Shown here piece by piece: positions 4,896 through 28,707 of a stretch of DNA of 64,000 bases. Position 1 is the first letter of the stretch, and each line of letters starts with the position of its first letter. A model generated the notes under the pieces. The model worked only from the letters and a program-made list of their open reading frames with translations, was not told the origin of the DNA and searched no databases. The position numbers and the translations under genes are program-made. This stretch comes from Euglena gracilis (lineage: Eukaryota), in NCBI GenBank assembly GCA_039621445.1, contig CP154954.1:34507737-34571736 (forward strand), read 5' to 3'.

Positions 4896-5658
4896 TCCAC
4901 CGACCAGTGGCACAGCCTACTGGATTTGAGTGTTCAGGAGGAGCAAGGCTATATACAGAGCTGAAGTGTGGTGAGGTAAGGGCAAGGGCAAAGCCCAAGC
5001 GAAAGGGGATGAGGAGTGGCGGGTGTTTGGTGTGCATGCGCCGGGCCCTTCGGGGCTGTGGTACCCGGAGGCTGGTGTAAGGGTCATAGTCACCTTACGG
5101 GGTCAGGATCATGCGATCCGTGGCTCTTTCGGCCACCTGTAGCTGCCGTGCTACTACGCGGGCCAGCGTGATGGCCAAGTTCTCAGTCAATTCTTGAAAC
5201 CTTCGTTGTTTGGATGTTCCAGAGTACGAGTTGGTTGCGAGGCGGAGAACATCACGGAGGAGTTTGGAGGCTGCTGGCCCCGTGCACCCCCAGGGGTTAA
5301 AGGCTGCTCCAATGTACTCCCATTGGTGGCGGGCGCACCGATCTTCCGCTTGGGATCGTTTGTGCATTTCAGCATCCGGTAAAGTACGTTGAACTCGGGT
5401 TAAGTTCAGAGGCCATCGTGAGGGTGCCAGCGGGTGTTCGATGGTGATATCCACAGTAGGGTTGTGCCAATTAATCGGTTTGGGAAGTCGAACGATTAAT
5501 TGCGATTAATCGGGGGGTCCCAGACGATTAACGATTAATTGGTCCATGTGTGATACTTCCGCAAACCAACCCCAAAAAAATCAAAATCCACAAAAATAAC
5601 AACAAAAAATCGTAAGGGTGAGAGCCCTCGTCAACTAAAATTTTTACTTTACTTAAAA

Positions 5659-6128
5659 TGGCGAATAGCTCAGTGGTAGAGCATAGGGCTTACAACCCTA
5701 CAGTCCCGGGTTCAATCCCCGGTCGTCCCCCTTTTGGACATTTTCCCTTTTTTGAGAAGAGTGTGTTATTGTGTTTAAAAAAAAGTGTGAGACTTTAGCC
5801 ACCCAGAAGGCGAATAGCTCAGTGGTAGAGCATAGGGCTAATAACCGTATGGTCCCGGGTTCAATCCCGGTTCGCCCCCTTTTGGACCTTTTCCTTTTTT
5901 TTCAGAAGAGTCTGGTATTGTGTCAAAAAGGAATGTGTGGTCAGAAGGCGAATACCTTAGTGGTAGAGCATAAGGGTAACAACTCTACGGTCCCGGGTTC
6001 AATCCCCGGTCGCCCCCTTTTTGGACATTTTTCCTTTTTCAGAAGAGTTTGTTTTAGTGTTTAAAAGAAAATGTGTCGGAAATGTGAAATCCACCAAAAA
6101 GCGAATAGCTCAGTGGTGGAGTATAGGC
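5659..6128 (+). repeat. Tandem array of tRNA-derived units (~140-150 bp period, 3 full and 1 partial; anticodon positions TAC, AAT, AAC)
   Basis: GGCGAATAGCTCAGTGGTAGAGC...CCGGGTTCAATCCC at 5659-5730, 5808-5879, 5946-6016 and partial at ~6100, each followed by a shared T-rich spacer. Stems are imperfect, so these are probably pseudo-tRNAs. Confidence 0.8.
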
Positions 6129-7474
6129 AAAGGCCGTTTTTCAAAGGCCGAGCAAAGTCGGTTTTTCAGTGCTGGGAGTTTTGAGGGCAAATGTGATTTG
6201 CCGACCCCCCGGGGGGGGTGGTGATTGACAGTTCTCCGCAAAAAAAAAAGCGACTGACTTTGTGTGGACTGGACCCAGACACAGGAGGCAAAGCACTTGC
6301 ATTGGACAGCCAAATTCCTTCTGTTTCTATTGTGCTCATTGCTTTTTAGCTTTTTTCCGCCGAGGCATACATGGAATATCGTACAGTCGCAAAATGTTCA
6401 TGCGAACTGACATGAGGGCACGAATACTCTCCTCGGAGGTCGGAGGTCAGAATGAAGCAAACTTTGTGCAGAAAAGCTCTTTTGCAGGGTGTCGCCCAGA
6501 CCACTTGGAGCTCAGACCACTTGGAATTAAATTGCAAGCGATGGGGAGGTCCCCAGATGCATTTCTGAGCCCCCTCCCAAAAATCCTTCATGGTCCATGG
6601 TGCATTTTTTTTGCTTCGAAAATGTGGGTTGCCAACTTTTCGCAGGAGTCATGGCTCCCCCCCCCAGGACCCCCCAGGACCCCCCAGGACCCCTCCCCCC
6701 CAAGACCTCCCAGGACCCCCCCAGGACCCCCACAGGGGGGCAATACCCACACGACCACTGATCGTGGAGTTCCGGGCGCCTCCGGACCCCCCATTTGTCA
6801 GGAATAAGCGATAAGCGACACACTACTCCTTTCCACACACGCCTCTGAAGGGGCCATACTGAAAATTGCAATTGCAACTTTTGAGAGGAGCGGTGGAGCA
6901 GGGTGTGAAACGGTCTGATGAGCAGGGGGGGGGGCAAAAATTGGTGAAATTTTGGTTGCAGTTGCACCTCACATCAGTGTCATACCCTGGATACTTGTAA
7001 GGCGATGGATCGCCAATACTGGACAGGGTGTGGGCATTCTGTCGGAGGGGACAGAGCGCCAAGTCGAGCCACCCATTGGCCCCATTGCGCTCTCAAGGAG
7101 GGCAAAAATTCTCCTGTGTGGCCCATTTTTTTGAGCAAAGGGATGCAGAAGGTTGTCAACAACGAGGAAATTTTGGTGAGATCACAGGTTCACTCATTGC
7201 AGGGGGGGGGGGGTGAATCTCAATTGGAACAACAACTGTTTTGAACAAAAATGGCGAGGTTGGCGTTTATTATGAAAAAGTGAATGTGTGGGGGAAAAGG
7301 CACGTTTTTTCCCCGAAAAATGCAATGCCTTCGGAATCACTGAAACAACCCCAAAAACCAAAATAGTACACTTCATACCAAACATTCATCGTGATGGGGC
7401 GAAAACCAGGATAACCACTGGAAAACCAGGATAAGAACCTCTTTACCTTGTTTATGGGTTGTAATTGTACAGCA

Positions 7475-7546
7475 AGACGAGTGGCCAAGTGGTAGAGCGT
7501 GTGTTCTATGACCGTGTGGTCGTGGGTTCGATTCCTGCCTCGTCTT
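7475..7546 (+). pseudogene. tRNA-like pseudogene
   Basis: Acceptor AGACGAG/CTCGTCT, A box TGGCCAAGTGG and B box GGTTCGATTCC are present; the anticodon stem is mispaired. Confidence 0.6.
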
Positions 7547-7610
7547 TTAAAGTTCAACTTTTGTTGACAAAACCACCAACAAAAGTTGGATAAAATGGGT
7601 TACAAAACTT

Positions 7611-7682
7611 CATACATGGTGGGGATCGAACCCACGACCTCACGGCTGTGAAGTATGCGTTGTACCACTGAACTACATGCAT
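7611..7682 (-). pseudogene. tRNA-like pseudogene (CAC at anticodon position)
   Basis: Minus strand ATGCATG-TAGTTCAGTGGTA...GTGGGTTCGATCCCCAC-CATGTAT; the anticodon stem is mispaired. Confidence 0.6.
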
Positions 7683-10275: not shown

Positions 10276-12349
10276 CAGGGTTGCCACGCGAACAACGTGG
10301 AAACGTTCGGCCCACCACGATTGAGTGGAATGATCTGGGGTGGAAGAGGCCAAGGAGGAAGGGTTGGCGATCCAGGAGGCCAGTGGTTCGCTGTGCGGGC
10401 CCAAAGTATCAAGTTGCAGGGCAAGGTGATTTGGTTCCAATGTAAGGCAGACAGGGTGCCCCCACGATGTCACAGGCCGCGTGCCGGATGGAATCTGAGA
10501 TGATTTGCACACTCTGAGTACCGGAGCAGATATTCGTTTGACGCAGGAGGTGTGTCACGCGACAGCCGTCCAAGCAGTTGCGTAGCAGATAGTGTTGCAG
10601 TTGGGGGTCCGGCAGTTGTTGGAGGCGCAAGATGGTATCCTGGAATTTTTCAGATGCCTTGGCCCAGGTAATGTCAGAGAAGGTGCTGTCGCCGGGGTAG
10701 TCACAGGGTACCCCAAGGCACAGGATGCCTGTTCCCGGTCCCCATGGAGTGACTGGGAAGTTTTGTGCGAGGTGTTCGGGAGGGAAGATCTGAAGGACCG
10801 GGGGTTTTGGGGTGGCACAGGGGATACCTGGTCCCCACAAGGCCCTTTCTAGGGGTTGAGTCGGAGCCCGATGGAGCCGAGTGCCGTGGCCAAAGAAGCC
10901 GCAAAGGGCAAAACATCGACGGCAGGGCCGATGACAGTTCCGTCGTCCAAATACCATGCCTGCCACACCGTGTTAGGCAGGGTGGCCGAAGCCTGTTGCA
11001 GCGCCTGATGCAGACCCAAGGCAAAGGCAATGGGCCCACAGGTGTCCCCCTGATGGACGCCGGTCCTGCTGTGACAGATCACTTCGCCCTGGCAAAGTAG
11101 CGGGACGTCTTCCCCGTACGAGAAGCGGAGCCAATTGTAGAGGGACGGGCACAGGATCGATCAATGGTGTTGAAGGCATTGGATACATCGGCCTGAAAAA
11201 TGACCCAGTCACCATCCGTTGGCAAGGAGGATATGGCGGCCTGTATCGCAAGCCCCACTGTCTCCGCACCGTACCGAACTCCCACTCCCAATTGCATCGG
11301 GAACAGCTGAGATGTTTCTGTTTTGCATTGCGGATGTCGCAAAAGCATTTTTCCAATGAAACGGCGGAGACAATCCCCACGGCGATCGGGCGCAGCCCAC
11401 CGTCCTTTTTTGTGAGTGGGATCAGGTTGGATGTCCCAAAGATGATCGACGCATTTGTTGGTAGAGAGCCCTCCCAGGCCATCTGAGCCAGGGATCCCAA
11501 GGCTGTGTGTTGGGGGCCTGCGCCTGCCTCGCGGTCCAACAGGTCCCGAAGGTGTTGAGGACGCAGACCAGATGGGCCGGGGGCGCTGCCGCGGGGGAAA
11601 GAGGCCGCGGCTTCCTGCACAATTGAAGTCCAGTTGAAGTCAGAGGCTTGTGGAATGTTGCCTACCCCAGGCAGCGGCAAACTGGCGCGGACAGGAGCCC
11701 CCGGTGGATGGAGCGAAAGAAGTTTCTCCAGAACTACTGGGTCCCCGGAGGATGCTAGGGGCAGAGAGGTGAGGGCGTCCACGGCCTTGCCGAGAGCTCC
11801 TTCTTCAACCAGACCGCGTACCCGGTCCATCAGACCACGCGTCACAGAGTCCGAGGTAGAGTTAGAGGGATTCGCACGAGTGGAGGGACGCTTCCGCCGT
11901 CCGTCAGAACGAATGGGATCAAACAGGGCTCCAACCTCCCCTGCATGCCATTGGGAGAGTCTCTTCTCCAGGAGGCAATGTAACGTGCGTCGATGGAAAG
12001 ACGAGTTTTTGGGAGGGGCACCAAGAACCAGTTTCGGAAAAATGAACAGGCGGTGTAAGGATTCCCAGGTTTGTGAGCGGAGAAAGGTCTGAATAGCAGA
12101 TGCCAAGGCATCAGAGATCGCGTGACGACATGACAAGGGAATACGTCGGAGAGTGGGGCAGTTGGTGGAGAGAACCACCTGCAGATTAGGCTGCAGTTCT
12201 GGACACGGGTGGGAAAGGGGAGTGCCGTCCCCAACGGGCTGGTTCGATGAGGTGGGAAGGGGGGAGGAGGGGTGGGAGGAAGCATGGGTGGTCGAGACAT
12301 TGAGGGATCCATAACTGGAGACGCGACATTTTTCACGATCCCAGCTCAG

Positions 12350-12374
12350 CTTTCTGAGTGTCTATTTTTTTTCG
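12350..12374 (+). other. Euglenid spliced-leader exon sequence at the 5' end of E1
   Basis: CTTTCTGAGTGTCTATTTTTTTTCG matches the Euglena SL as I recall it. It is not followed by a GT donor; ATG follows after 18 nt. Confidence 0.9.
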
Positions 12375-13089
12375 ATCTCCTCATAAACCGCCATGTCGGG
12401 GGCCGCGGCCCCAGAAGACCCGCCAGCCGTGCTGGAAGTGCCGCTGGACAACGTCATCCTCAACAAAAAATTGAATTCGGTGCTGGAGCAAGTGAGCCTG
12501 GTGGCTCAGAATATGGTGGTATTAGCAAGCAAAGTGGAAGAGCTGGCCGACAAGGTGGAGGAAGGACGACCGGGAAAAAGGAGACGACAAGAAGACGAAG
12601 CCTACGAGGAGTTCCTCAAAAAAAACACCAGAGCCGATACATCCCCCGCCACCTCCGACACCAGCCTGAGCAGCCCTTACCGCCCCCCTGGCTACAACAC
12701 ACACACACACACACACACACACCACACACTTTTAAATCCCCAGGGGAAGCATGGAAGGACTGCCCAGCAACAACAGCAGCCACAGCAGCAACAGCTGCAG
12801 CCCCAAATGGGGCAAATGGGCAGCCAAATGGGGGCCCAGATGGGCAGCCTCCTGGGGGGCCCTGTGGGGAACACCCCCACCATGACCGCCAGTGCAACAG
12901 CCAACCAAGGGCTGTAGCTCCCCACCGACCTGCTGCGACAGCTGCTGCTACAAATCATGTGGATGCTGCTTGGACATGTTCCAAATTTAAATTTAAATTC
13001 AAATGGCAGCCACATGTCCATTGCTACCGATGCCCCGCTCTTAATGGCAGCTGGACCCTCTGGACCCTCCCTCCCACCATCTCCTTCAT

Positions 13090-15437
13090 TTGTGCCCTGC
13101 CAAATCGAAGGGGGGGGGGGAGTGGAAGAGGGGGGGGGCAGAAGTTTTTGAAGTCACACCCAGGACTGGGCCAAGGCCCCCCCCCAAAAAATGCACCACA
13201 ACACCCCAAATCCAGAGGATTTTGGAAAAACTCAGGACAAGGTCCACTGAGGAAAAGAAAATGGTCACCGACCTGGTGGATCAAAAAAGGGCTGCACAAA
13301 AAAAGGAGCACACCTTAGCAGCCAGTTCCAAAGCCCCGGCCAACCTGCCGACAAACTCGATTTCAGCAGCAGACGATTGGTCTGTGATGTCTTCGACGGA
13401 CGCCTCCATCTGGGGGGAATGGACCGGGTCCAGAAAAAAATACAAAAAAGTCCTCGTGGACCACTGGCTGGAGGGAATCCATATCGCCGCTTCCCCCCTG
13501 CCCCCCCACCCCCCCGGTCGCACCTGGTCTGACCTAGCGGACGACGACGTCCAGCTGCTCCTGTATCCCCCCTGCGCGCAGCCCCAAGAAGGGGGGGGGA
13601 GGGCGGCCGGCTACCGCCCCTCGGGGGGGGCCGGCGCCACGGGCATACGACGGGGTGGCATCACGCCGACGGTCACAGTCGCCCCGGCCTCTCGAGGCAG
13701 CTCTGCCACAGGGATATCCTCTGCTGCGGCGATATCGAGGAGAACCCGGGGCCTCGCCCGGGGGGACCGGCGAGCCCATCCCCCCCCCCTGGCACCCGAC
13801 GACGTCTGGGAGGAGATCTACTGGACTGGCCAACACTGGCGGTGGCTACGTCTGCTCACCCCGGCAACCGCCGGCCCCTCGTCGTCGGGGACGGCAGCAC
13901 ACCTCGCGTCGGCATGGTCCGAATTTGCGAGATGCCTCTTGTGCTCTCAGCACGTCAACCTGTCGTCCCTCCAAGGCATGCAGTCCCATCAATGCCAGGC
14001 GGGTAGGCCCATGGGCAACATTTTCTCTCTCCCCTCCATAAGAGAAGACTCGTGGCGCTGGAGGCTACAGCACTTGGAGTCCCTCCCAAACGGCGAGTGG
14101 TGGCTGGTACACTGCCAAATGTGCGGATGGTCGACTGCGACCCTGTACCCAGCGCCCATAGTTGCCCACATGCAGATCTGCCAACCACCGTCTCTCTCTG
14201 ACGTCGATAGCGACCCGGAGGATGACGATGCCGACGACGATGACTCCACGCGTCCCAGACGGGGAGCGGCCGCTCTTGGGCCCAGCAGCCCGGCACCGGC
14301 ACCCCCCGGGGCCTCACCCCCACCCCACGTAGCTGCCTCCCCCAGAGACTCACAGGGAGCCCCGCGTGGGCGGCTCCTCACCTCCACACTTCGCCGGCAG
14401 GCCGCCGGCTGCCGCCGCCTGGGGGCTCCCCCGCGGGCTCGGAGCGGCAGGGGCGCAGACATCCTCACTGCGGGAGATGTGGAGAGCAACCCCGGCCCCA
14501 CGAGCTCCGGCCGGGCTTCATCCGTTCTCCCCCCCCTCGCACCAAGCGAAGACTTCATGCTGGACACCGAGTGGTTCCAGGCGGTGGTGCGGGCTCTGTC
14601 CCCCCATAACCCGCCCACCATCGACGCTTTCGCCGAGCAAAATAACACCCAACTGGACGCCTTCTGGTCATCAAGGGAGGATGCATTCCTCCAGAATTGG
14701 AACTTGCCAAACCCGCTGTGGTGCAACCCACCCTTCTCCCTGCTCCCCCGTGTTTTGGAACACGTCCTTCGATATGGGGGCAACATCATCCTCCTCGCAC
14801 CGGAGTGGTCCACCGCGCTGGCCGGCCTGCGGCGCCTCTCCTCGCATTCCGTGACCTTACCGCGATGCCCCATCTACCGGGCCCGGGGGACAGCGCTGCT
14901 GCCAGCCCCCACGTGGTCGACCACAGCCCTACGGATATGCCACACCGGCAGCGGCAGCCCATGCGGCGCCCGGCCCCCACCGGGTCCCCACCGGGGCGCT
15001 GACCACGGACGGCAGCTCTCGCACCACGCGCACTCCCCTTACCCCCTTGCGCCGCTCCTCTCCCCTGGCCAACAACGCCTCATCATAGAACGCCGCTCCA
15101 CTCATGGCGGCGAAGTCTTCCACCTAGGGGACTATGCAGGCTGGACATTCCTATTCCACCGGAACGCCCTGTGGGACATCCGCGGTCAGACCCCCTGCTG
15201 GTGCCCTCGCTGCGGCCTGTGGCAATGGCCTTGGGACTGCCCCACGTTGCTCCCTCTTCAGTTTGCCGCCCTTAGACCACCGCTCTTACGCCCGGCTTTT
15301 CGGCTGACCCCCACCCCCCACTCCCTCCTCGACGAGCCACGGGCCCCCCTGGATCTGGCAGCGGTAGCCAACTCACTGCCAAAAAACGGCCATCGTTGTC
15401 CGCGCGGGGCAGTCCTTTCATACGGGGGGCAAACCGC
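13090..15437 (+). CDS. E1 polyprotein N-terminal part: two C2HC-type Zn fingers, 2A peptide, DNA adenine methyltransferase
   Basis: CLLC..H.C and CQMC..H...C; GRGADILTAGDVESNPGP at 14446-14499; MTase motifs. A frameshift before ~15437 is needed to reach the second 2A. Confidence 0.75.
14548..14940 (+). CDS. N6-adenine DNA methyltransferase domain (phage Dam / DIRS-MT-like)
   Basis: PTIDAFAEQNN..F...EDAFLQNW...LWCNPPFSLL....IILLAPEW; catalytic NPPF at 14725-14736. Confidence 0.85.
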
Positions 15438-18400
15438 GGACGGGGTAGCCTCCTCACCTGTGGCGATGTGGAGGAGAACCCTGGGCCAGCCAAGCGCCCG
15501 GCCTCCGGGCCACCTCATGGCGCACCGGCTGCTGCGGATGCCCGGGACCACGACCACCTCTTTCTGGACCTGGCCCACCCGGAACTTGACGCCGCGGTAG
15601 TTATCGACAGCGCGGGGCAGGAGTCCAACCTCCGGGGACGGCCCGCGCACAACCTTGTCGTGGGCACTCCCCCATGCGACATCACCCACGTCCTCCAACA
15701 AAGAATCTCGACCCTTATTTACCTGCCCTCGGCCTGCCAGCAACCTGTCTTTGACACTTTGGCAGATGCCATCAACGCATACACGCACGCACCCTCGGAC
15801 GCTGCTCTATTCAGCGTCCTATCCTTCCCGAAACTCGTCCTCCGACCGGTGTCGACTACCAAACCACCGCCGGCAGCGGAGCTGGAGTCCATCCTGCTGA
15901 GGCGTACCAAACTGTTCCGCGAGGGGGACTACGGCACCCTTCTGACAGAGGCACTAAAGGACGCACAGGCTCGACACTCCGTCGTGGAAACCAGGGCGGA
16001 AAAACGCTCAAGAACGCAGCCGACCGCCCTCAGTGAGGCCATCACGAGACGTGTGCGCACCCTCACCTCGCAGAAGGGGCGTCCGCGAAGGCAGTCCAGC
16101 TACTGCTCTCTGAGGGCGCGCACCAACCGGATGATCCGGATGTCTGGGCTGCCCTGGAGAAGTTGCACCCCAGCGGCAGACAGGTGGACACCAACCGCCT
16201 CCCGCGACATGTTAAGCCCTTCCCTGAGAACCACATCCCGGAATGGGAGGACAGACTGAAGGAGGCCATCCGCCGTTTCCCACGGGGTTCCGCCGCAGGC
16301 CCGTCGGGCCTGCGGCCCAGCCACCTCCAAGACTGTCTTCGTAGGCCGGGCCGGGGAGCCAAGCTGATCACAGCCCTTGCGCGGCTGACCCAGTTCTGGA
16401 TTGACGGCCAGCTACCACCGCACCACGCCGCGGCCTGGTGCTGCGCGAATCTGACCCCACTCCGCAAGAAGGACAACGGGGTGCGGCCAGTGGCGGTTGG
16501 GGAGACCATCCGCCGCCTGGTAGGGAAAACGCTGCTCCGCTCGCCCCCACCCAGGTCGGGGTTGGGGTACGGAACGCCGCCGAGGCCGTTGCCCTGGGCA
16601 TGCAGCACCTCGTGCTTCAGCTGGGGGACACCTCACCCTGGGTTTCCCTCCAGGTGGACTACTCCAATGCTTTCAACACAGTTGACCGAGGGGCGATCCT
16701 CACAGAGGCCGAGACCCGTACACCCAGTCTGTTCAATTTCCTGAGGTTTGCATACAGCGGGCCCGTCCCCCTCTTCTGCGGGGGCCGCACCATCCTTTCC
16801 CAGAGGGGCACACACCAGGGCTGCCCTCTGGGCCCCATCGGGTTCACCCTGGCGCTGCAGCCGCTGCTGGACCAGATAACCAGGGACGGCCAGCTGCTAT
16901 GGAACAGCTGGTACCTGGACGACGGCCTCCTGGTCGGAACCCTCGACAGGATTGAACACTGCCTCCGTTTCCTGCTGCAAGAGTCCCACCGCATCGGCCT
17001 TGGCCTCAACCTACAGAAGTGCGTCATGTGGGGCCCGGGAGCGCGGAGTGCACCCAGTTGCGACAGATTGCAAGTGGTCCCTTGGTCACCAGGGGAAGGC
17101 ATTACCGTGCTCGGAATCCCAGTAGACCACCCCGCGTCCTCCGACACCACCAAGAAAGCGTGGGCGGATGCTGCCGCCAAGATCGAGAAGGCCTCATCTA
17201 CCATAACGTCCCTCACCGACGCCCAGGTGGCACATCACCTTCTGCGGAGCTGTCTAGACGGCTGCAAAGTGAACCACCTCCTACGCGCGTCCGACTCGTA
17301 TGGCAGCCAAGATAAGGTTACAGGTTGCTCGGAGGTCATCATGAACGCCTTCGAGGACATACTGGGCACGGCACTGAACCCACAACAGCGGACACAAGCG
17401 TCGCTGCCCCTATCCAGCGGGGGCTGCGGCCTGCGCGTCCCGTCCTGCACTCAGCCCGCAGCCAGGATCTCCTGCCTTGCAGACTTCTACTCAGACGGGG
17501 CCAGGCGCGTGGGTGTGCCCGACTACGCATCCGGCCTGCAGCTACCCCTGGTCGCGCCCGTCCTGGACGACCTCCGGGGCAGGCTAGGAGCCAACCATGC
17601 CACGGTCACCACCTTCCTCCACAACCCACAACGACTCGCCTCCGCGGACCAAGAACCCCGGAGGCAAAAGTGGTGGAACCACGAGCTGGGCAAAAAGGCG
17701 ATGGATGGCCTTGTGGACCAGGCCCGGCCCCGCGACCAGAACCGCCTCCTTGAACAAGCCACGGGGTTCGGACACGGGTGGATGGCGGCCACCCCTTCCA
17801 ACAACTCCCACACCACCTTCTCTAGCGAGGAGTACACCTTGGGACTGAAGTGGTGGTTAGGGCTTCCGGTGCTGGAGGACGTCAGCCAGCCGTGCACAGG
17901 GTGCGGCCAGCCTCTGGACCAGGAAGGCGACCACCTGCTTTGCTGCCGCAGGAACAACTTCTCAGCCCGGCACAACGCTGTTCAGGACGCTCTGTTTCTA
18001 ACCTTGTCCAACAGCGGTCACCGGGTGCAGAAGGAAGTTTCCCTGCCAACGGCCCGAGACAGTCACCTACGCCCGGCGGACCTCCTGCTGGACTGCTGGT
18101 CCGAGGGGAAGCCGACGGCGCTGGACGTTACCGTCTGCCACGGATGGCAAGCGGCAGAACACACAGCGACCCGCGAACGCTGGAGATCCTTCCTGAAGAG
18201 GAGGGAGGACGCCAAAAAGCAGAAATACAACGTGCCATGTCAGCAAGCAGGGTGGGGCTTCACACCTTTCGCCCTCGGGACATGGGGTGGCATGGGACCG
18301 GAAACGGCCAAGACACTGAGCAGAGTGGCCAAACGCGCATCGTCCTGGCAACAGGGCGCTGAGCGCGAAACCAAGCAAGCGGAAATCTACCAAAATGTGG

Positions 18401-18459
18401 CCATCGCCTTGCTCCGAGAAGTGTTCCACCTCTTACAACCCAAGCACGTCCTCCGTTAA
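15438..18459 (+). CDS. E1 2A + reverse transcriptase + CCHC + restriction-like endonuclease (two frameshifts, near 16070 and 16545)
   Basis: GRGSLLTCGDVEENPGP; GSAAGPSGLRP; RPVAVGETIRRL; DYSNAFN; QGCPLGP; WYLDD; CTGC..GDHLLCC..RHN; RPADLLL..LDVTV. Confidence 0.9.
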
Positions 18460-18842
18460 CCACGGGAGGAGCCACCCCAAAAAACAACAACACACACACA
18501 ACACAACCACACACCCACACCCACACACGCACACACACCCACACCCACACACACACACACGCACACCAACACACCACAACCATCCGCACGCCCTCCCGCC
18601 CGCGCCAAGCAGGCCGCCTCACCCCTACCGTCAGCCACCCCAGCCGTCAGCCACTCCAGCCGTCCCTCTGCGCCTTATATTGAAGATGGGCCTTGCCCGT
18701 TTTCCTCCTGCCCTGCCCTGCACCACCTGTATATACTTTTAACCTCCTCCGGACCTTCAAACCCAGTAGGCTGTGCCACTCGTCGGTGGATTCGGTTCGC
18801 CCCACCACCGCTATCCGGCTAAGTCGGCCCCTCCCAGCTCAA

Positions 18843-20726
18843 ACTACACGCCAGCTGGAGGAGGTTGTACATTTGGTCCTTGAAAAGGGACCACCCATTG
18901 GTGTTGACCTGAATACCAACAAATGCACCCTTTGGGGGCCAGCCTTCCAACCCGACCGTTTTCTCTTCCTGGAGGGGTTGCAACGCATCCCCGTAACTCC
19001 ATACATTCCTGGTTCCGGAATCAAGTCCCTCGGGGTTCCAATTTGCCATCCGGAGGACGGGACATTTGCCGAACGTGTGTGGTTTGGGCGGTGCGAAGAA
19101 GCTATGAAGGCGTGTTCAGCCTTGCAGAAGGTGCCTTCTGCGCACATCCACTTCACCATTCTAAGGCTGTGTCTGGACGCGTGCAAGGTTAACGACCTGT
19201 TGAGGACTACTCCAATTGGCCTTGCAACCATGCAGTGCACGCTGCTAAGCAAAACCCTGCGGAATACCGCCAGCATCATTGTCGGGCGGCCGCTGGAAGA
19301 GGACCAGTGGCGCCAGGCCACCTTGCCTGTCCGGTTGGGTGGGTTGGGCATCCGGGACCCTACCACGGAGCGCCCGATCGCCAGGTGGGCCGCCACACTT
19401 GACTTTCTTGTTCGCGGCGACCGCGTCCTCGACTTGCCACCCATCTGTGGGATGAACCCCCTACCTTCGGAATTTACCGCCCAGGTGGAGGCCATCAAGG
19501 GTCTATGTGAGCTCCCACCGATTGCAAAGGCCTTTGTTGAGGACCCAAAAAGTCCGGAGATGCTGCCTCAAGAAATGACGGCACGGAAATTCTGGGGACA
19601 ACAGTGTGCAAAAGCCCGACAGCAAGCTCTGTACAACTCACTCACGGGTAGCGATAAACTGAAAATGGCATGTCAGATGAAGCCACATGCTATGGCTTGG
19701 GCCTCCGTTACGCCGTCAGCCGCCACAAGGACGCTCATACCAACAAGGGAATTCCAGGCCCTGATGCAATGGTCCCTGGGTGCTCCGGTTGTTTCGCCTT
19801 CAGATGCCTGTCCCGGGTGCCCTCGGTGCCACAACCCCTTGGACGCAAGAGGCCATCACCTCGTTTGTTGCCACCGGAACAACATTGTTCGGCGACACGG
19901 GGCGGTGCAGTCCTACATCCTTGGGCTGGCCCAAAAGGCAGGTTTCCCGGCCAGAAGAGAGGAGAGTGCCCCTGATGGTTCCCGCCCGGGCGACGTATTT
20001 GTGATGCGATATGATGCAAACGGTCCGGCGGCAATCGATGTGACCGTTCGCCACCCCCTTGCACCTTCCCGCGTACGGCCAGGATTGGAAGACCTTGGTA
20101 AATGGCATGAGAGCCAGGAGGAAGACAAAATCAAAAAAGTATGGAGACGGTTGTAAGCGCAGAGGGTGGACGTTCATCCCCTTTGTCCTCGATTGCTACG
20201 GAGGAATGGGGGAGGCAGCGCTTGCCTTTGTTGGAAACTGTGTTCACTTGCTTGCGGGACAACATGACGCATGGGAGAGGCGAGCAGCGGAGGCAAACTG
20301 CTGGCAGGGCCTCAGCATGGCCCTTGCCAGAGAACTGGCGAAACAGCTCGTGTGGGGCCAATGCCCTGACGACCTCAACGAAGGAGGTGGCATGGACACT
20401 CACCACCCATACAGCACATGAGCTACCCCTTCGGGCTCCACTATCCCGAAGCAACCCCTCCGCCTCCGGCGGTGCTTCCTGAACTAGCGGAGGCCTGGAA
20501 ACGGCCCGCCACGCACAGCCAAGGGGGCAGCGAATCGGGACCATGCCATGATATATAAGGAATGCCCCCTGCAACAACCAAGAACCAATGCAGCACGTCG
20601 GAGCTGCAACGACGCCCCCGAGGAGCCGCAGGGCGTGAAAGACAGCTGAAGCCGGAATCACCGGCCCACCCGTCATCAACACCCAGACCTTAAACGGCAC
20701 CGAGCCCTGCCACCTCCCCATTGCCT
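18843..20726 (+). mobile_element. E2a: 5'-truncated near-identical copy of the 3' part of E2
   Basis: Matches 22875-24766 apart from a 9-bp deletion (ACAAGTGTA), one extra A near 20135 and a few substitutions. Confidence 0.9.
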
Positions 20727-23700
20727 CCGCCGGGCACCAGCCATTACAATTTCTTCGCAAAAATCACCCGGAACAGCCCACTCAGAGTCCCCTCAGGGGG
20801 GTTTTTGAGGTCGCCGAGTCCGAATATCCGCTCACACCGACGTGGTGGAGCCGCCAGAGCCGGCATTCGTCAAGACCGTCCTGGTAGAGAGCGAAGCCTC
20901 AAGCTCCTCGACCCCTGCGGAGAATGGGCATTGGCGGATTCTCCAAGCCACGCAAAGCGGTCAAGCACAGGGTTTTTGAGGTCGCTGAGTTCAATTATCC
21001 TCTCGGATGGACGTGGTGGAGCCGGCAGAACGGGCATTTGTCAAATCCTTGGACCTTTTGGGAAGCGGAACGGCCTTCCCCGCAAGCTCCATGCCTCCGC
21101 TCACCCTCGGACCGGCAGAGGGGACAGCCTGCTGACATCAGGGGATGTCGAATCAAACCCAGGCCCGGGTCCACCAACCTTCCCTGAAGCGAACAACACC
21201 TTGGTGCCAATGCTGTATGACTTTGAACAAAACGCAGAGGGTACAATTGGCTTCCTCATGGCGACAACCATGCCTCCGTTGCAGCCCCCGCCGCAAGTAT
21301 CCCCTTCCTCACAAGATGCCAGGGAGCTTCAAGACCTGCTGCAACGGCTCATCAGCCGGCCACCGCTGGAGGCCACCCTCCCCGCAACAAATAGCCCAGG
21401 GCCCACAAGAGGACCCAGTGCGTTGGATGGGGTGGACGACGTTGAAATGGGGGTTCAATATCTACCCGGCATGAAAACTGGCACTGCCCTTCAATCCCCG
21501 TGCCCGGATCTCTCCCCGTCGTGGATGGAAATATCCTCGGATCCAAGGGGCACTGTTTCCACCATACCAAAGTGAGCCCTTCCCGCGGTCTGTGACGTGT
21601 ACTCCTGCCTTCTCCGGGCGTTCAACGAGAGGCCCACCTGGGAAACATTACATGGCCTGTGGGCTTTCCCCAAGGCTGTGTTGGCACCTTTGGGAAAGGG
21701 TGGACGCGGCCATTGGGCCCGGTTGGGAAGGGTCATCCGCGGCAGAGCGGAAGCTTATCTAAAACGAACGGTGGCAGACAGTTGGAAGGACTCTGCCCGC
21801 TTACCCCAAATGGGTCAACCTGTTCGCACCAGGGGCCAAGCCCGACGTGAGCAAGAAGTGCAAGAAGAAGCATTCGTACGCCGCCTTGAACGTTTGGTGA
21901 GCAAGGGTGCCGTTGGCAAGGCATGCCAGGTCCTGACTTCGGACGGCGTGCAAGATGACAAACACCCCGTTGTGCGCCAACGGTTGAACGATCTTCACCC
22001 GGCTGAGGAACCACCTGGCCGGGGCCCCACGGATAAACGGGTTCTGTTTCCGCCACCTGGAGACGAGAACGAGAGGAGGGACAGGCTTTCCATGGTCCGC
22101 AAAGCAGTGTTCAGTTTCGGAAAAGAATCGGCAGCAGGGCCATCGGGCCTAAAGCCGGACCACATTAAGGACATGCTTAGCAGGGAAGCTGGGGGACAGG
22201 CCGAGACACTGCTTGAGGGCCTCACGACCTTCGTCTTCTGCTGCATCAACACGGGATGGCCCGCCGGTGTGGCTGAAATCCTCACATCGGCACGCCTCAC
22301 GGCGCTGCGAAAGGTCAAACCGGCCACGACAGTGGATGACGCTGGGAACCTCACACCCAATGGGCAGGATCCCGCACAAGAAGGGACTCGGCCCATTGCT
22401 TCCGGAGAATGCTTGCGCCGACTGGTGGGCAAGGTGCTGATGCGCCAACCTGCCGTGCAAAAGTTTACCCAAGATGGGATGCCCGGGCAGTTTGGGGTGG
22501 GTTGTCCTGACGCCTGTGGCCTGATCGGCATGGGCCTCCAACACCTCGTGACCAGCCTCCATCATGGAGGCTCTCGTGACTGGGGAGTCTTGCAATTGGA
22601 CTTCAGGAACGCATTCAACTGGATCCGGAGGGATAACCTTCTCGAAGCAGCACGAGAACGATGTCCAGAAATGGTGACGTGGCTGGAGACCTGTTATGCA
22701 GAACACTCGAGCCTCTTTTTGAGCGACACATCCCTCCGAAGCCAGTCGGGGGTTCAGCAAGGCGATCCTTGTGGACCGGCTGCCTTTGCCATGGCAATTC
22801 AGAGTCTGGTGGAGGAAATCCATGGCGTTTGCGGATGGCAGGCCTGGTACCTGGACGATGCCCACATCATGGGGACTACACGCCAGCTGGAGGAGGTTGT
22901 ACATTTGGTCCTTGAAAAGGGACCACCCATTGGTGTTGACCTGAATATCAACAAATGCACCCTTTGGGGGCCAGCCTTCCAACCCGACCGTTTTCTCTTC
23001 CTGGAGGGGACAAGTGTATTGCAACGCATCCCCGTAACTCCATACATTCCTGGTTCCGGAATAAAGTCCCTCGGGGTTCCAATTTGCCATCCGGAGGACG
23101 GGACATTTGCCGAACGTGTGTGGTTTGGGCGGTGCGAAGAAGCTATGAAGGCGTGTTCAGCCTTGCAGAAGGTGCCTTCTGCGCACATCCAGTTCACCAT
23201 TCTAAGGCTGTGTCTGGACGCGTGCAAGGTTAACGACCTGTTGAGGACTACTCCAATTGGCCTTGCAACCATGCAGTGCACGCTGCTGAGCAAAACCCTG
23301 CGGAATACCGCCAGCATCATTGTCGGGCGGCCGCTGGAAGAGGACCAGTGGCGCCAGGCCACCTTGCCTGTCCGGTTGGGTGGGTTGGGCATCCGGGACC
23401 CTACCACGGAGCGCCCGATCGCCAGGTGGGCCGCCACACTTGACTTTCTTGTTCGCGGCGACCGCGTCCTCGACTTGCCACCCATCTGTGGGATGAACCC
23501 CCTACCTTCGGAATTTACCGCCCAGGTGGAGGCCATCAAGGGTCTATGTGAGCTCCCACCGATTGCAAAGGCCTTTGTTGAGGACCCAAAAAGTCCGGAG
23601 ATGCTGCCTCAAGAAATGACGGCACAGAAATTCTGGGGACAACAGTGTGCAAAGGCCCGACAGCAAGCTCTGTACAACTCACTCACGGGTAGCGATAAAC

Positions 23701-25000
23701 TGAAAATGGCATGTCAGATGAAGCCACATGCTATGGCTTGGGCCTCCGTTACGCCGTCAGCCGCCACAAGGACGCTCATACCAACAAGGGAATTCCAGGC
23801 CCTGATGCAATGGTCCCTGGGTGCTCCGGTTGTTTCGCCTTCAGATGCCTGTCCCGGGTGCCCTCGGTGCCACAACCCCTTGGACGCAAGAGGCCATCAC
23901 CTCGTTTGTTGCCACCGGAACAACATTGTTCGGCGACACGGGGCGGTGCAGTCCTACATCCTTGGGCTGGCCCAAAAGGCAGGTTTCCCGGCCAGAAGAG
24001 AGGAGAGTGCCCCTGATGGTTCCCGCCCGGGCGACGTATTTGTGATGCGATATGATGCAAACGGTCCGGCGGCAATCGATGTGACCGTTCGCCACCCCCT
24101 TGCACCTTCCCGCGTACGGCCAGGATTGGAAGACCTTGGGAAATGGCATGAGAGCCAGGAGGAAGACAAAATCAAAAAGTATGGAGACGGTTGTAAGCGC
24201 AGAGGGTGGACGTTCATCCCCTTTGTCCTCGATTGCTACGGAGGAATGGGGGAGGCAGCGCTTGCCTTTGTTGGAAACTGTGTTCACTTGCTTGCGGGAC
24301 AACATGACGCATGGGAGAGGCGAGCAGCGGAGGCAAACTGCTGGCCAGGAAGAAGCATGGCCCTTGCCAGAGAACTGGCGAAACAGCTCGTGTGGGGCCA
24401 ATGCCCTGACGACCTCAACGAAGGAGGTGGCATGGACACTCACCACCCATACAGCACATGAGCTACCCCTTCGGGCTCCACTATCCCGAAGCAACCCCTC
24501 CGCCTCCGGCGGTGCTTCCTGAACTAGCGGAGGCCCGGAAACGGCCCGCCACGCACAGCCAAGGGGGCAGCGAATCGGGACCATGCCATGATATATAAGG
24601 AATGCCCCCTGCAACAACCAAGAACCAATGCAGCACGTCGGAGCTGCAACGACGCCCCCGAGGAGCCGCAGGGCGTGAAAGACAGCTGAAGCCGGAATCA
24701 CCGGCCCACCCGTCATCAACACCCAGACCTTAAACGGCACCGAGCCCTGCCACCTCCCCATTGCCTGCCCAACCACTCTGACTCACGTGGACGAAGAACT
24801 CCGGAAGCTGATCAACAGCGGCCTCACCTCGCGCCTTATACTGTTCTCTTTGCTCGCCCCTTTTACCTTCCCTCCCTTCACCAGCGTGCACAGACTGTTG
24901 CCTCTGTACATAGCCTTACTCCCCTGAACTCTTCAAATCCAGTAGGCTGTGCCACTGGTCGGTGGATTCGGTTCGCCCCACCACCGTTCGGCAGGTTGCA
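20727..25000 (+). mobile_element. E2: CRE-like retrotransposon lacking its 5' end; 2A - RT - CCHC - RLE - 3' module A
   Basis: 2A GRGDSLLTSGDVESNPGP at 21114-21167; ORFs 20721-21575 and 21597-24461 are in frame and separated by one TGA; module A at 24935-24986. Confidence 0.9.
21114..24461 (+). CDS. E2 2A-RT-RLE protein (in-frame TGA at 21573-21575)
   Basis: SAAGPSGLKP; RPIASGECLRRL; DFRNAFN; GVQQGDP; WYLDD; LPVRLGGLG; CPRC..HHLVCC..RRH; RPGDV..IDVTV. Confidence 0.9.
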
Positions 25001-26541
25001 TTTTGAGTGTCTATTCTGAGTGTCTATTTTTTTCGTCTGCATAATCACCATGGCTGCAAAGTGGCCGGATGGCCCTCCAGAAGACCCTAAGACTCAAGAC
25101 AATACACCCCTTGTCAATCAAGCTGCTACCACAACCAACCCTTCAAGTACACCTACTGTTGCAGTGGACACTGGACAGTTGGAGCTGCTGGCCAAGATGT
25201 TGTTGCCGCTGTTGGTGCCGGTGCTAACCACTGCTGTGGCCCAACGACTCACTGTTGACCGCCCTGTACATAGTGACAGAGAAAGTCAAGACAGCAGCTC
25301 ACAGAGAAGGAAGAGGACATGGCAAGAGAGGGAAGAGCATGAAGAGTACCTACAGAGAAGGTTTGGAAGAGATTACAAGCCCCCATGGCAGAGAGGTCGA
25401 CCCAGTTATCATATATCTCAACAGAGTTCTCCACAGCCCCAGCTCCATCAGCAAGTGAGTCTGGGGCCCCCCTGTACAGCAAGCCCATCAGTGGGCATTC
25501 CACAGTCAGGCCCATCAGTGAGCATTCCAATGAACAGCCCATCCCAATGCCCACCAGTGGGTAGAAGTCAAGTATGTCCATCTGTCACATCAATCATACA
25601 AATGTACATTCCATCACAGAGCAACCTTTGGGGTGAACCCCTGCAATCTCAGCAACCACTGCAATCAAACTGGAGCAGAGAAGATGACCAGAGGAAGAAT
25701 TGGACCAGAGAAGAAGAGCAGAGAAGGAGAGAGGCTGAACTCTTCAGAAGCCTCAGAGCCTTTCTCAGCACAGGCCAGAGTACACAAGTCCGCCCCTCCC
25801 AACACCATTACACAACCCTGGCCTGCCAGCACCCTTAATCCCAGATGTGGTACTGGCATCACCATCAGCCTTCCAATATGGTTTTCTGCCTGCAGCTTTC
25901 CCTTTTGTCTCACAAAGTCCCCCCCAAAGAGGGGACAACTCAACACAATACCTTCACCCAGTAAAACAAGTGGATCAAGAATTTCATCCCAAGGCAACTC
26001 CAAATCAAAAGGAGTCAGCAAAACAACCCCCCCCCACCCAAAATAGGAGGATCATCAACCCCAGCCAAATGCAACCCCAAAAAATCTCAGCACCAGCCCC
26101 CCAATATCAGCCCCCCCTGCAAGAGGGGGGGGGGGCCAGGCCCACCATTTCGCATTTTTAAAATTCCAACAAAACCCACCATGTTTGATGGCACACAGTG
26201 GGCCAAACTGGGCACAGTGATCCTGCAGGAGGAACCCAGCCCCTTTCAATGGCAAGACCCCCCCCAGGCAACTGATTTACCAGCCTCCCCACCCAACACC
26301 CCCCTGGAAGGGGTCCCAGTTTGGGAAACACCAGAGTTTCGGTCCCTCAGGGAAGAATTTTTTTGGAGAAGGCGCATGAGACAGCAAGCAGGAGGCATTT
26401 TATTTCACGAGAAGGTCGCCAGAAAACTGGCAAACATTCAGGAAAAGTGGGTCGACATTGGCAGAACAGTGGACATTCGGCAGTCACAAAAAATGGTGCA
26501 CACTGACATGAAACTCACGTTGCCACTGGCAGCGCCAAAAG

Positions 26542-28707
26542 TTGTGCAATCGCCCCCCCCCACCAAAAAAGAACCTCACCCTGGAACGGATCAGAATCGC
26601 CCAAATTCTTCATCAATACCGACCAGAGGAACAACGTGAGGAGGGACTGGACATGTCGCACATAAAAAACGTACGCCGAGCTATCGCACAAAAAATCAAA
26701 CAAAAAGTGCCAGCAGCAGAAGCAGTCCGCCCCCCGAGGACAAAGAAGAGGCTGACACCCTCCCGAGAACCAACCCTGCCCATTGCCTGGCGATACTGCC
26801 CAAGAATTTGGCTGATGGATGACATGCCCAGACCGTTACAGTTTGCGTGTGAGGTTGGATTGGCTGATCGTCTTTCCCCGTCTGTGTGGACCACCAGCGA
26901 TCTTGATGACTCAAATGACTCCCTGTCGGACTATTACTCTTGTGCTGCCACAAAAAATTTCCACATGGCAGAAACAGTTGGCACCATACACCTCTGCACT
27001 GCATGCCCACACGGGGGGAAGAAGCCGGAAGACGCATATCTGAAGACGGGGCGAGGTGATTCCCTGACAACAATGGGTGATGTGGAAACCAATCCAGGCT
27101 CGCTGACGGCATTTAATGGACCCTGTGGTGAAGTCATGGATCTATTGGACCAACTTGTTGCCATGAACATGACTGATTTCTTTCGGATCAAGGCTGAAAT
27201 ACCACTGCGGCAAGGCCCCGATGGCTCCTCCCGTTCACTTCTTCCCAAAGCTACATACTGGCTGAAATGCACTTTGTGTGACATTGAAACCATCACTGCC
27301 TCGGCAGGTTGGTGCCTGCACCACAGGGAAACCTGCCCTGTTTTTTCAGCCACAGTATATCCATCTACTGAGACAGCAAAAGTACACTCCGTAACAAGCC
27401 GAGGATACACCCAAGAACAAGCTCGGGAAAAGTTTTCAGAAGGACACCAGCCGACTGGAAGGGGGGAACGAATCACCACCCATGGTGACGTCCAAACACA
27501 ACCAGGGCCCATCTACTTCCGTCTGGCCACCATGGAAAGACCGACAATCCCTATCTCCAGGGGACTTCAAGAAAATTTCATTCGGCACAGACTGCTGGCG
27601 AGCCTTCAAGAGGTGGATGCAGAACTTCAAACTTTCCGAGACACCTTCCCTTCCGATGTCCTTGTTGAGGACGCTACCGTCTATGAGCTCACCGAATGTT
27701 GGGAAGTTTTGAGAGGAGTTCTGTTTGTGCTCATAGGGCTATGGCCACATCGACCACCACGTCACGACTCCCCATCGAGTGTGCATGCCATTATGTGGTT
27801 GCTGACCTGTTTATGGTCCGAAGTATGCAACATCGGCGAGGCCTTTCACTTCTACCTGCCCCCTATTCACCTAATGACACTACCCAACGTTCTCCGGCCG
27901 AGAGGCACTTTCCCCAGAGTACCTCCAACGGAGCCCTCCTCGTCCGACCTCTGCCCATTGAATGTACACACCGTTGATATCCTGGACATCATGGCCTTGT
28001 TACGTCCGACAAGATCAGTAGTTTCAGTTGACCGTCACATCCGGAGGGCACGACGGACAGCACAAAGACGACCAAACCACCAACGAGGTGACATAGGCCG
28101 TAACAACGCTGTCATATCCGAGAGGCCCACACACCAAGATGTCACACTTTGTGGTGACGTTCACCTCGAGCCAGGACCTATTTATCGGATAACCCCTCGT
28201 GAAGGACCCCTATCCATGCGACCTAGCACCCGGCCCCATTGCCGACGACCAACCAACCAACCAGGGCCTTCTAAGTTGTCAGATGTGGCCCCAGGGCACG
28301 CCAACCACGTACGGCAACCGATTGACCAGGAAAAAACGCGGTATGGGTACAGTCCTCCCCGATGTGGCAGGGGCAAAAGCCTTGCCAGTTGTGGCGACAT
28401 TGAAAGCAACCCAGGTCCCACAGAAACCCGCCCTCCCCAGCAGGAGGACGTCGAAATGGCCTCAGCCGCACAGACCTCTGCTGTGCCGCCGACGGAGGTA
28501 CCACTCCTTGGATCTTGGTTTCCAATGCACTCAACGCCGCTGCTCTCGCCTACTTTGTCCCAGGCTATAATGCCGTTTCCCAGTTTGAACGGGGGCCCCG
28601 GGGCACCTGCAGCTGAACAAATCATGGTCATTGACGAACTAGAGTCCCGGGTGCGCTCAGCGATTTCCGAAATTCACGGGTGTGCGCGCCACAGGGCCAG
28701 GGGTTGA
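26542..28707 (+). CDS. E3 polyprotein middle region with four 2A-like motifs and a C2HC Zn finger
   Basis: GDVETNPGS (27049-27102), GDVQTQPGP (27457-27510), GDVHLEPGP (28126-28179), GDIESNPGP (28366-28419); CTLC..H...C. Confidence 0.75.
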   Translation: MCNRPPPPKKNLTLERIRIAQILHQYRPEEQREEGLDMSHIKNVRRAIAQKIKQKVPAAEAVRPPRTKKRLTPSREPTLPIAWRYCPRIWLMDDMPRPLQFACEVGLADRLSPSVWTTSDLDDSNDSLSDYYSCAATKNFHMAETVGTIHLCTACPHGGKKPEDAYLKTGRGDSLTTMGDVETNPGSLTAFNGPCGEVMDLLDQLVAMNMTDFFRIKAEIPLRQGPDGSSRSLLPKATYWLKCTLCDIETITASAGWCLHHRETCPVFSATVYPSTETAKVHSVTSRGYTQEQAREKFSEGHQPTGRGERITTHGDVQTQPGPIYFRLATMERPTIPISRGLQENFIRHRLLASLQEVDAELQTFRDTFPSDVLVEDATVYELTECWEVLRGVLFVLIGLWPHRPPRHDSPSSVHAIMWLLTCLWSEVCNIGEAFHFYLPPIHLMTLPNVLRPRGTFPRVPPTEPSSSDLCPLNVHTVDILDIMALLRPTRSVVSVDRHIRRARRTAQRRPNHQRGDIGRNNAVISERPTHQDVTLCGDVHLEPGPIYRITPREGPLSMRPSTRPHCRRPTNQPGPSKLSDVAPGHANHVRQPIDQEKTRYGYSPPRCGRGKSLASCGDIESNPGPTETRPPQQEDVEMASAAQTSAVPPTEVPLLGSWFPMHSTPLLSPTLSQAIMPFPSLNGGPGAPAAEQIMVIDELESRVRSAISEIHGCARHRARG

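Follow-up and report, generated by a model that had tools for sequence, protein, structure and literature searches.

A 2A-delimited Dam-like methyltransferase domain in a decayed R2-like retrotransposon of Euglena gracilis

We analysed a 64,000-nt stretch of Euglena gracilis contig CP154954.1 (the window; all coordinates are positions within it, and its G+C content is 55%) around a retrotransposon, E1, that occupies about 12351-18580 on the forward strand. E1 is present once in the window, amid a dense pile of nested, diverged elements; RT-plus-endonuclease elements match its reverse transcriptase (RT) frame by tblastn in at least ten copies or fragments on both strands. An earlier sequence-only reading of this DNA had proposed that E1 is a CRE-type retrotransposon without long terminal repeats (a non-LTR element) in which an N6-adenine methyltransferase is bracketed by two 2A peptides. 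We find that E1 is a decayed copy of a multi-copy Euglena non-LTR retrotransposon family, and that the bracketed methyltransferase domain is a feature of this family.

E1 opens with an exact 24-nt match to the Euglena spliced-leader sequence (12351-12374), and the first ATG (12393) follows 18 nt on. The first reading frame (12393-12917, 174 aa) probably encodes the N-terminal product. It contains a coiled-coil-like stretch (judged by eye), a TH repeat encoded by (CA)n and a Q-rich tail, matches no Pfam family, shows the same multi-copy depth as the rest of E1, and is closed in the window copy by a stop codon (12915-12917). The first of three 2A sites (no. 0, DIEENPGP, 13731-13754) is out of frame here, lying in frame 3 between frame changes near 13590 and 13780. 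Two C2HC-type zinc-finger motifs (13933-13995 and 14113-14181) belong to the product between this site and 2A site no. 1 (14446-14499, ...ILTAGDVESNPG/P, with DVESNPGP at 14476-14499), which was identified by pattern match. The Dam-like N6-adenine methyltransferase domain follows at 14545-14952 (149 bits with the family hidden Markov model, HMM), with DAFA at 14623-14634 and NPPF at 14725-14736, and the same 2A-delimited product carries a Cys-rich knuckle, CxCxxC...WPWxC (15196-15240). 2A site no. 2 (15438-15488, ...GSLLTCGDVEENPG/P, with DVEENPGP at 15465-15488) lies in frame 3, severed from the methyltransferase frame by a change at about 15402. Beyond it come an N-terminal extension and the RT (15489-17100; Pfam RVT_1), which are interrupted by frame changes at about 16067 and 16538 and are collinear with residues 265-650+ of the metagenome protein P0005. 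The C-terminal region (17734-18456) combines a CCHC knuckle with a restriction-like endonuclease (RLE; core about 17900-18220), both recognised from invariant columns and fold. The element closes with a stop codon (18457-18459), a very short 3' untranslated region (UTR) and an A-rich/(CA)n-like tail reaching 18580.

Both the RT and the C-terminal endonuclease identify E1 as an RLE-type, R2-like non-LTR retrotransposon. For a profile of eight RT-endonuclease sequences, the best solved relatives are R2 proteins (E 3e-14 and 5.5e-14), followed by the ORF2p protein of LINE-1 (a long interspersed nuclear element, LINE) at about 3e-4; the profile was needed, as a single-sequence search of solved structures with the RT-endonuclease frame gave no match. 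In the last 241 residues, CCHC, R-H, RPxD, D-x-T and E..K columns are invariant across 19 sequences (C57, H67, C71, R79, H80, E101, R113, D116, D131, T133, H136, E158 and K161). The model of this region has a predicted local distance difference test score (pLDDT) of 85.8, and its top seven Foldseek matches are all R2 proteins (E 1.1e-6 to 5.6e-4), with Prp8 and PD-(D/E)XK nucleases following. Pfam detected no apurinic/apyrimidinic endonuclease (APE), RNase H, integrase or recombinase family in the E1 frames or in the intact proteins P0005, P0016 and P0025, and no long direct repeat of E1, and hence no LTR, is found in the window. The sequence-only reading was therefore right about the element class. 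Its narrower assignment to the CRE type is not supported: E1 is not inserted inside a spliced-leader RNA gene as CRE-clade elements are, an Rfam scan of the window finds neither a spliced-leader RNA gene nor a 5S gene, and the sole lead is the NCBI name 'SLACS' on a Diplonema protein (P0205) that shares 29% identity and that the RT tree places apart from the E1 group.

The 168 aa after 2A site no. 1 match the Pfam family Dam (PF05869, phage-type DNA N6-adenine methyltransferases) with an E-value of 4e-7, and their 30.3 bits exceed the family cut-off (28.1); searched within the whole 851-aa frame, the same match scores 26.9 bits, just under that cut-off. The family HMM places the domain start 16 codons past the 2A proline, and together with the pattern scan it bears out the distances and motif positions given by the sequence-only reading. 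A HMMER search with the domain against 1.84 billion representatives returned 722 relatives at E <= 1e-3, 87 at <= 1e-10 and 5 at <= 1e-30. We examined the best 150 of the 722, all unnamed metagenome proteins from ENA or JGI, and 128 of these also match PF05869. Conservation covers about 130 aa. In an alignment of 99 sequences, D43, F45, W68, W75, N77, P78 and P79 are each at least 90% conserved, and NPPF is retained in 37 of the 41 proteins on the E1/2A side of the methyltransferase tree described below.

An AlphaFold model based on the same 99 sequences (pLDDT 90.4; predicted template modelling score, pTM, 0.85) contains all strands of the class-I methyltransferase core at high confidence. 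Foldseek ranks the cap-specific adenosine N6-methyltransferase PCIF1 first (E 3.8e-4, template modelling score 0.52) and KsgA-type enzymes next. A second structure search, independent of Foldseek, gives PCIF1 (Z 9.2), T4 Dam (Z 7.5; root-mean-square deviation 3.0 over 107 residues), E. coli Dam (Z 7.4) and DpnM (Z 6.6), all four of them class-I methyltransferases. Since Z values of 7-8 are common in this search, the fold claim rests on sequence family, motif and fold jointly. With the methyltransferase as a single sequence, a search of solved structures gave no match, and ESM Atlas returned unnamed eukaryotic clusters only, one of which carries PF05869 on 14% of its members and is a lead only. 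Taken together, 14545-14952 is confirmed as a Dam-family domain with an intact NPPF motif and a class-I methyltransferase fold. From these features, we consider it somewhat more probable that the domain is an active adenine methyltransferase than that it is not.

The pairing of this domain with 2A sites extends to its relatives. A degenerate DNA pattern for D(V/I)ExNPGP matches the window six times (13731, 14476, 15465, 21144 and 28396 on the forward strand; 41843 on the reverse) and 100 shuffles of it not at all; three of the six matches (13731, 14476 and 15465) fall within E1. Among the E1/2A-side proteins, NPGP occurs no more than 60 aa before the methyltransferase in 13 of the 18 whose upstream part reaches 40 aa or more, and a 2A site follows it within 220 aa in all 15 with at least 200 aa downstream. 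The bracketing by two 2A peptides thus holds at the level of the family. P0005 (1294 aa) runs, in one open frame, through methyltransferase, Cys knuckle, 2A, RT and endonuclease, and P0016 (1273 aa, also open) has methyltransferase, two successive 2A sites, RT and endonuclease. In the open frames of P0200 (2111 aa) and P0202 (1601 aa) the order is 2A, C2HC zinc finger, 2A, methyltransferase, 2A, RT and endonuclease, and their three 2A sites correspond to those of E1, the first in P0200 standing at the position equivalent to E1 site no. 0. P0002 (zinc finger, 2A, methyltransferase) and P0003 and P0006 (methyltransferase, knuckle, 2A and the beginning of the RT protein) cover parts of the same layout. 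The C2HC motif precedes the methyltransferase in P0002, P0200 and P0202, with residues 9-71 of P0002 aligning to the zinc-finger region at 13987-14181. A pattern search detects the Cys knuckle in P0005 and P0200 and fails to detect it in P0016 and P0202, and inspection by eye adds P0001, P0003 and P0006; the knuckle is joined to the methyltransferase product in the closest relatives of E1. Intact relatives, therefore, have one long frame that 2A sites cut into N-terminal, C2HC zinc-finger, methyltransferase and RT-endonuclease proteins.

In all, eight distinct protein clusters couple the methyltransferase to an E1-type RT. In a search for longer proteins the E1 RT frame gave eight relatives, five of them at 47-52% identity, and four of these five (P0200, P0016, P0202 and P0005) carry the methyltransferase. 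Their methyltransferases share 40-52% identity with that of E1 and their RT-endonuclease parts 47-52%. P0005 is collinear with the window over 14557-18453: residues 1-245 correspond to 14557-15324 in frame 1, 265-489 to 15438-16073 in frame 3, 487-650 to 16067-16558 in frame 2 and 646-1293 to 16513-18453 in frame 1. A metagenome locus scan with a narrower alignment yielded 15 loci at 29-41% identity, none with a 2A motif, an E1-type RT or a spliced leader, and no close DNA copy of E1 among them. We regard the architecture, and the retention of the methyltransferase at family level, as highly probable. Because the 2A bracketing is a family-level feature, release as a separate polypeptide is the natural reading and, judging from the motifs, is likely to take place.

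Relatives also differ in what lies between their 2A sites. Some, such as P0001, have a tandem pair of methyltransferase domains, and several 2A sites can crowd into less than 700 aa (five in P0055, three each in P0040 and P0020); the number of modules between 2A sites is freely variable among relatives. In distant RLE relatives we note hints below the Pfam cut-off of an OTU protease (P0203, E 0.0053) and an HNH domain (P0026, E 0.0063), the former recalling the deubiquitinase modules described ahead of LINE RTs (PMC13405545).

A quick, unrooted maximum-likelihood tree of 124 methyltransferase domains (127 pieces covering at least 95 HMM positions, minus three cluster duplicates) splits into 43 and 81 rows with a Shimodaira-Hasegawa-like approximate likelihood ratio (SH-aLRT) support of 96. 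All eight rows linked to E1-type RTs, that of the window included, fall on the 43-row side, along with 22 rows from 2A-bearing proteins and 13 others. The 81-row side holds all eight rows linked to other element types (RT-RNaseH-methyltransferase, methyltransferase-integrase and methyltransferase-RT), 14 2A-bearing rows and 59 others. In an RT tree of 34 rows, E1 belongs to a fully supported 23-row clade with P0200, P0005, P0016 and P0202; the methyltransferase-less sisters in the window (21.6-24.5, 28.6-31.8 and 38.4-41.3 kb) form another fully supported clade, and the domain-bearing P0025 sits on a separate long branch. A six-frame HMM search of the whole window finds one methyltransferase domain only, that of E1, so that the sister families lack it, as had been noted from the sequence. 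We conclude that the methyltransferase module is an old, retained part of the E1 lineage and not a nested insertion. None of the refuting conditions named by the sequence-only reading is borne out: the fold agrees, diverged relatives have the domain at the same position, and NPPF persists.

The sister RLE families themselves lie at 20694-24458 and 25020-31799 (forward strand) and at 32583-36149 and 38437-43024 (reverse strand), with 2A sites of their own at 21144, 28396 and 41843. Their long upstream frames, e.g. 26512-28704 (731 aa) and 41257-42939 (561 aa), match no Pfam family and are putative 2A-released accessory proteins.

Sequencing runs bear on the state of the window copy. Between 0.59 and 0.67 of the sampled words of the stretch were found in fourteen DNA runs from at least ten studies. 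We compared contigs of three DNA runs (X1, X7 and X13) and reads of one RNA run (X24) with 12300-18700; in the DNA runs 745, 812 and 127 contigs matched the E1 region at 90-100% identity, and the methyltransferase region is multi-copy in all three independent runs. Length differences in the contigs coincide exactly with the frame changes of the window. High-depth contigs have one base more at 13590 (two of three runs, X1 and X7), one base fewer at 13780 (X1, X7 and X13), one base more at 15402 and two bases fewer at 16067 (three of three runs each), and about 31 bases more at 16538, seen as a joint in two runs and, in the third, as loose ends that match it. The two conserved peptide blocks on either side of 16538 are 5 nt apart in the window and 12 codons apart in P0005, which fits a 31-nt loss in the window copy. 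Since the contigs differ at the very sites of the frame changes, the frameshifts are defects of the window copy and not of the family. This includes the switch from frame 1 to frame 3 between 15324 and 15438, which the sequence-only reading had recognised between the methyltransferase and the second bracketing 2A; it is real, and counting it alone missed four of the five frame changes in E1. The three substitutions recorded in and just before the methyltransferase domain are too few for a selection test. At the 3' end other copies diverge from the window copy, with contig loose ends at 18471 and joints at 18459/18460, and the flanks of the window copy reveal neither a readable target-site duplication nor a target motif.

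Exact matches to the 24-nt E. gracilis spliced leader number two in the window and zero in 100 shuffles. The 24-nt sequence is part of the published leader, which begins with A (PMC6242988). The second match (43024-43001, reverse strand) lies 9 nt ahead of the ATG of another family's first frame. In E1 the whole leader is confined to the 5' side, where a short 5' UTR and the ATG follow it directly, and this arrangement indicates a reverse-transcribed trans-spliced mRNA rather than insertion into a leader-RNA gene. The leader also identifies the host as a Euglena. Full-length copies, then, begin with the host spliced leader and consequently descend from mature, capped, trans-spliced mRNA. No AG lies between leader and ATG to account for a single leader being regenerated in the next round of transcription and trans-splicing. 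Short leader-like partial repeats (...TTTTGAGTG... kind) also occur upstream of the leader, at 43025-43040 (reverse strand) and in the contig loose ends of other E1 copies at 12350; they may be left over from repeated formation of the 5' end or from template jumping at the 5' junction.

Our best overall explanation, to which we assign a probability of roughly 80%, is that E1 is a decayed copy of a 2A-partitioned, R2-like family with a methyltransferase module. In the mechanism that we propose for such a family, mature trans-spliced mRNA would serve as the template for insertion, and its translation, with ribosome skipping at three 2A sites, would yield four products. The third would be a free protein of about 330 aa, combining methyltransferase and Cys knuckle and made from the same mRNA as the RT. 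It could join the RNA-protein particle of the element and act during target-primed reverse transcription, N6-methylating adenines on the new cDNA, the RNA:DNA hybrid or the insertion site. New copies would thereby carry N6-methyladenine (6mA), a mark linked to active chromatin in Euglena. This self-marking proposal follows the model put forward for Dam-carrying LTR elements in a recent preprint (10.64898/2026.05.21.726589). By analogy, self-marking of new DNA copies is a tentative candidate for the role of the methyltransferase, to which we give somewhat less than even odds. The wider proposal, an unrecognised R2-like LINE clade of euglenids and uncultured metagenome eukaryotes in which a 2A-freed methyltransferase, a template mRNA capped by the spliced leader and 6mA written during target-primed reverse transcription would all come together, is more speculative still and, taken as a whole, rather doubtful.

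Several observations weigh against this explanation or its parts. The window copy is dead, given its five frame changes and the stop after its first frame. Summed contig depth, which climbs from 5' to 3' (in run X1 from roughly 120-660 at 13.4-15.1 kb to 720-1840 at 16.6-18.5 kb) in a rise that looks like the 5' truncation typical of LINEs, does not equal copy number. In the RNA run X24, 8 of about 12.9 million reads touch the stretch, all of them partly, which speaks neither for nor against expression. In P0201, otherwise a near-copy of P0005, a repeat-rich stretch stands in place of the methyltransferase. A search for proteins of near length with the RT-endonuclease frame gave 46 proteins, none reaching the upstream methyltransferase region, and is uninformative on how general the domain is. 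One origin of the E1-type methyltransferases is compatible with, and not proven by, the unrooted quick tree. Regarding the enzyme itself, the PF05869 match covers only profile positions 27-71 of 169 rather than the full length, in agreement with the account that Dam domains of eukaryotic elements lack the N-terminal catalytic and recognition parts (CD-1 and TR-1) of bacterial Dam (10.64898/2026.05.21.726589). The top fold match, PCIF1, is an RNA cap adenosine methyltransferase and not a DNA enzyme, and Dam domains from DIRS elements, LTR elements and adintoviruses gave no gain of 6mA in dam-deficient E. coli (10.64898/2026.05.21.726589).

The latter points open two other readings of the enzyme. 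In one, the methyltransferase acts on RNA, N6-methylating the leader-capped RNA of the element (internal N6-methyladenosine, m6A, or cap-adjacent N6,2'-O-dimethyladenosine, m6Am) for stability, translation or packaging. PCIF1 as the best structural match (Foldseek E 3.8e-4; Z 9.2), ahead of rRNA adenine methyltransferases, an element RNA that bears a spliced leader whose published form starts with A, the negative DNA assays of the preprint (10.64898/2026.05.21.726589) and the RNA role likewise proposed for the SymbioLINE cytosine methyltransferase (PMC5890265) all speak for it. However, the sequence family is Dam, the gap between Z 9.2 for PCIF1 and 7.5 for T4 Dam is small in a search where 7-8 is common, and Dam-bearing elements carry more 6mA in E. 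gracilis DNA (10.64898/2026.05.21.726589); we judge an RNA substrate improbable. A domain retained without methyl transfer, as a module that binds nucleic acid or S-adenosylmethionine (SAM) or as a structural part of the particle, is slightly less so, and still unlikely. It would account for the missing N-terminal parts of bacterial Dam and the failure of related domains to give 6mA in heterologous tests (10.64898/2026.05.21.726589), as well as for conservation limited to about 130 aa. Yet NPPF in 37 of 41 proteins, and N77, P78 and P79 at 90% or more in 99 sequences, are hard to explain without catalysis, and the full set of class-I core strands is modelled confidently.

Two further readings concern the pairing of methyltransferase and retrotransposon. 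The sequence-only reading had suggested a restriction-modification-like logic, in which the methyltransferase shields the sites of the endonuclease or marks used targets. Apart from the mere co-occurrence of the two enzymes in one element we find no support for it and consider it very improbable: DIRS and LTR elements have methyltransferases of this family without any such endonuclease, the sister RLE families in the window manage without a methyltransferase, and no target-site motif can be defined from the window copy. Less probable again is a one-off chimera, with a Dam-bearing DIRS-like or LTR fragment nested by chance in E1 or joined to it by misassembly. The single E1 copy in its dense nested pile and the sister families without the domain would suit a chimera, and the preprint treats Euglena Dam proteins with LINE-like RTs as 'DAM-LTRs ... 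nested insertions ... or assembly artifacts' (10.64898/2026.05.21.726589). This explanation is, however, already contradicted. The same order recurs in the open frames of the diverged P0005, P0016, P0200 and P0202, the methyltransferases linked to E1-type RTs group together and apart from those of other RT types, and the methyltransferase region is multi-copy in three DNA runs, with its flanking 2A sites in frame.

Dam-like or DIRS1-type methyltransferase domains in DIRS elements were known earlier, and the sequence-only reading knew such enzymes in retroelements from DIRS alone. That picture is outdated: Dam domains are now described in DIRS and in Ty3-like LTR elements, named 'DAM-TEs' (bioRxiv 10.64898/2026.05.21.726589, May 2026). 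E1 shares with these a homologous compact Dam-like domain with an NPP motif, and E. gracilis is a host there too, with a link to 6mA proposed (10.64898/2026.05.21.726589). In fact, lower-ranked HMMER matches of the E1 methyltransferase include RT-RNaseH-methyltransferase and methyltransferase-integrase proteins. E1 differs in its non-LTR carrier, which has an R2-like RT and an RLE and no RNase H, integrase or tyrosine recombinase, in its 2A-delimited domain, and in the place of its methyltransferases on their own side of the tree. The sections of the preprint considered here name the DIRS and LTR classes only, and 'non-LTR' occurs once in its main text, in the introduction (10.64898/2026.05.21.726589).

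Similar partial likenesses link E1 to other LINEs. SymbioLINE-Dnmt of Symbiodinium is also a LINE with a DNA-methyltransferase-type enzyme upstream of its RT, one that is under purifying selection and whose activity is unproven in heterologous tests; that enzyme, however, is a C5-cytosine methyltransferase in a separate first open reading frame (ORF1), paired with an APE-type (Exo_endo_phos) endonuclease and no 2A (PMC5890265), whereas E1 combines an N6-adenine-type domain with an RLE and keeps its 2A sites within a single frame. Canonical D(V/I)ExNPGP sites that part N-terminal modules from the RT inside a polyprotein are shared with 2A-bearing LINEs (PMC3708506, PMC13405545), known from L1Tc/ingi and APE-type clades (PMC3708506) and from ORF2p proteins with N-terminal deubiquitinase modules (PMC13405545). 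The clades named in these sources are APE-type or Dualen/RandI, and the word 'methyltransferase' does not occur in either (PMC3708506, PMC13405545); E1, in contrast, has three 2A sites that would give four products. With R2 and SLACS/CRE, E1 has in common a single long frame, an R2-closest RT, a C-terminal CCHC motif with PD-(D/E)XK endonuclease, and N-terminal zinc fingers. Unlike them, it lies in neither rDNA nor a spliced-leader RNA gene, its zinc fingers are split off by 2A, and it has an extra methyltransferase product and a trans-spliced leader at its 5' end. The E. gracilis genome paper gives repeats as bulk classes only, in the text available, with LINEs at 1.485% and 32.7% unclassified (PMC11252322). 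Metagenome data show the E1-type lineage to be widespread, and in Euglena it is multi-copy; as far as our literature searches show, it would be the first clear case of an R2-like LINE lineage with a Dam-like methyltransferase among its 2A-released products.

DIRS and LTR elements make their cDNA before integration; target-primed reverse transcription builds it on the chromosome itself, and a LINE-borne enzyme would therefore act at the insertion site or on the RNA:DNA hybrid. The LINE carrier thus alters the mechanistic question, and an RNA:DNA hybrid is the very substrate suggested by the preprint authors after their negative E. coli assays (10.64898/2026.05.21.726589). The same source proposes Dam domains as a means by which an element exploits host 6mA, and reports that in E. 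gracilis this mark sits on a subset of genes without CpG methylation and is found more frequently on Dam-bearing elements, and that Nanopore 6mA data for this species have been generated (10.64898/2026.05.21.726589). If the self-marking proposal is true, each new insertion would start with an active-chromatin mark in a genome whose default state is cytosine methylation. The neighbouring RLE families that lack the domain offer a control for the 6mA hypothesis within the same genome. Our results also explain the Euglena proteins that combine Dam with LINE-like RTs as a real class of elements rather than artefacts, and the 2A bracketing and spliced-leader 5' end add two host-dependent steps, translation recoding and trans-splicing, to the life cycle.

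Some minor observations concern the surroundings of E1. (CA)n-like tracts occur at its 3' end (18460-18580) and within its first frame (12697-12730), and the next element (18684-20153), which is 5'-truncated, stands head-to-tail after it; neighbouring families may be inserting into one another's tails or into CA-rich repeats. Four tRNA genes (Val-TAC, Ile-AAT, Ile-TAT and Val-CAC) are clustered at 5658-7682 between retroelement fragments. Further downstream, at about 44400-55900, long frames on both strands repeat peptide-like units (...NYGWKFWLPPP... kind), and this stretch is probably a tandem or satellite repeat.

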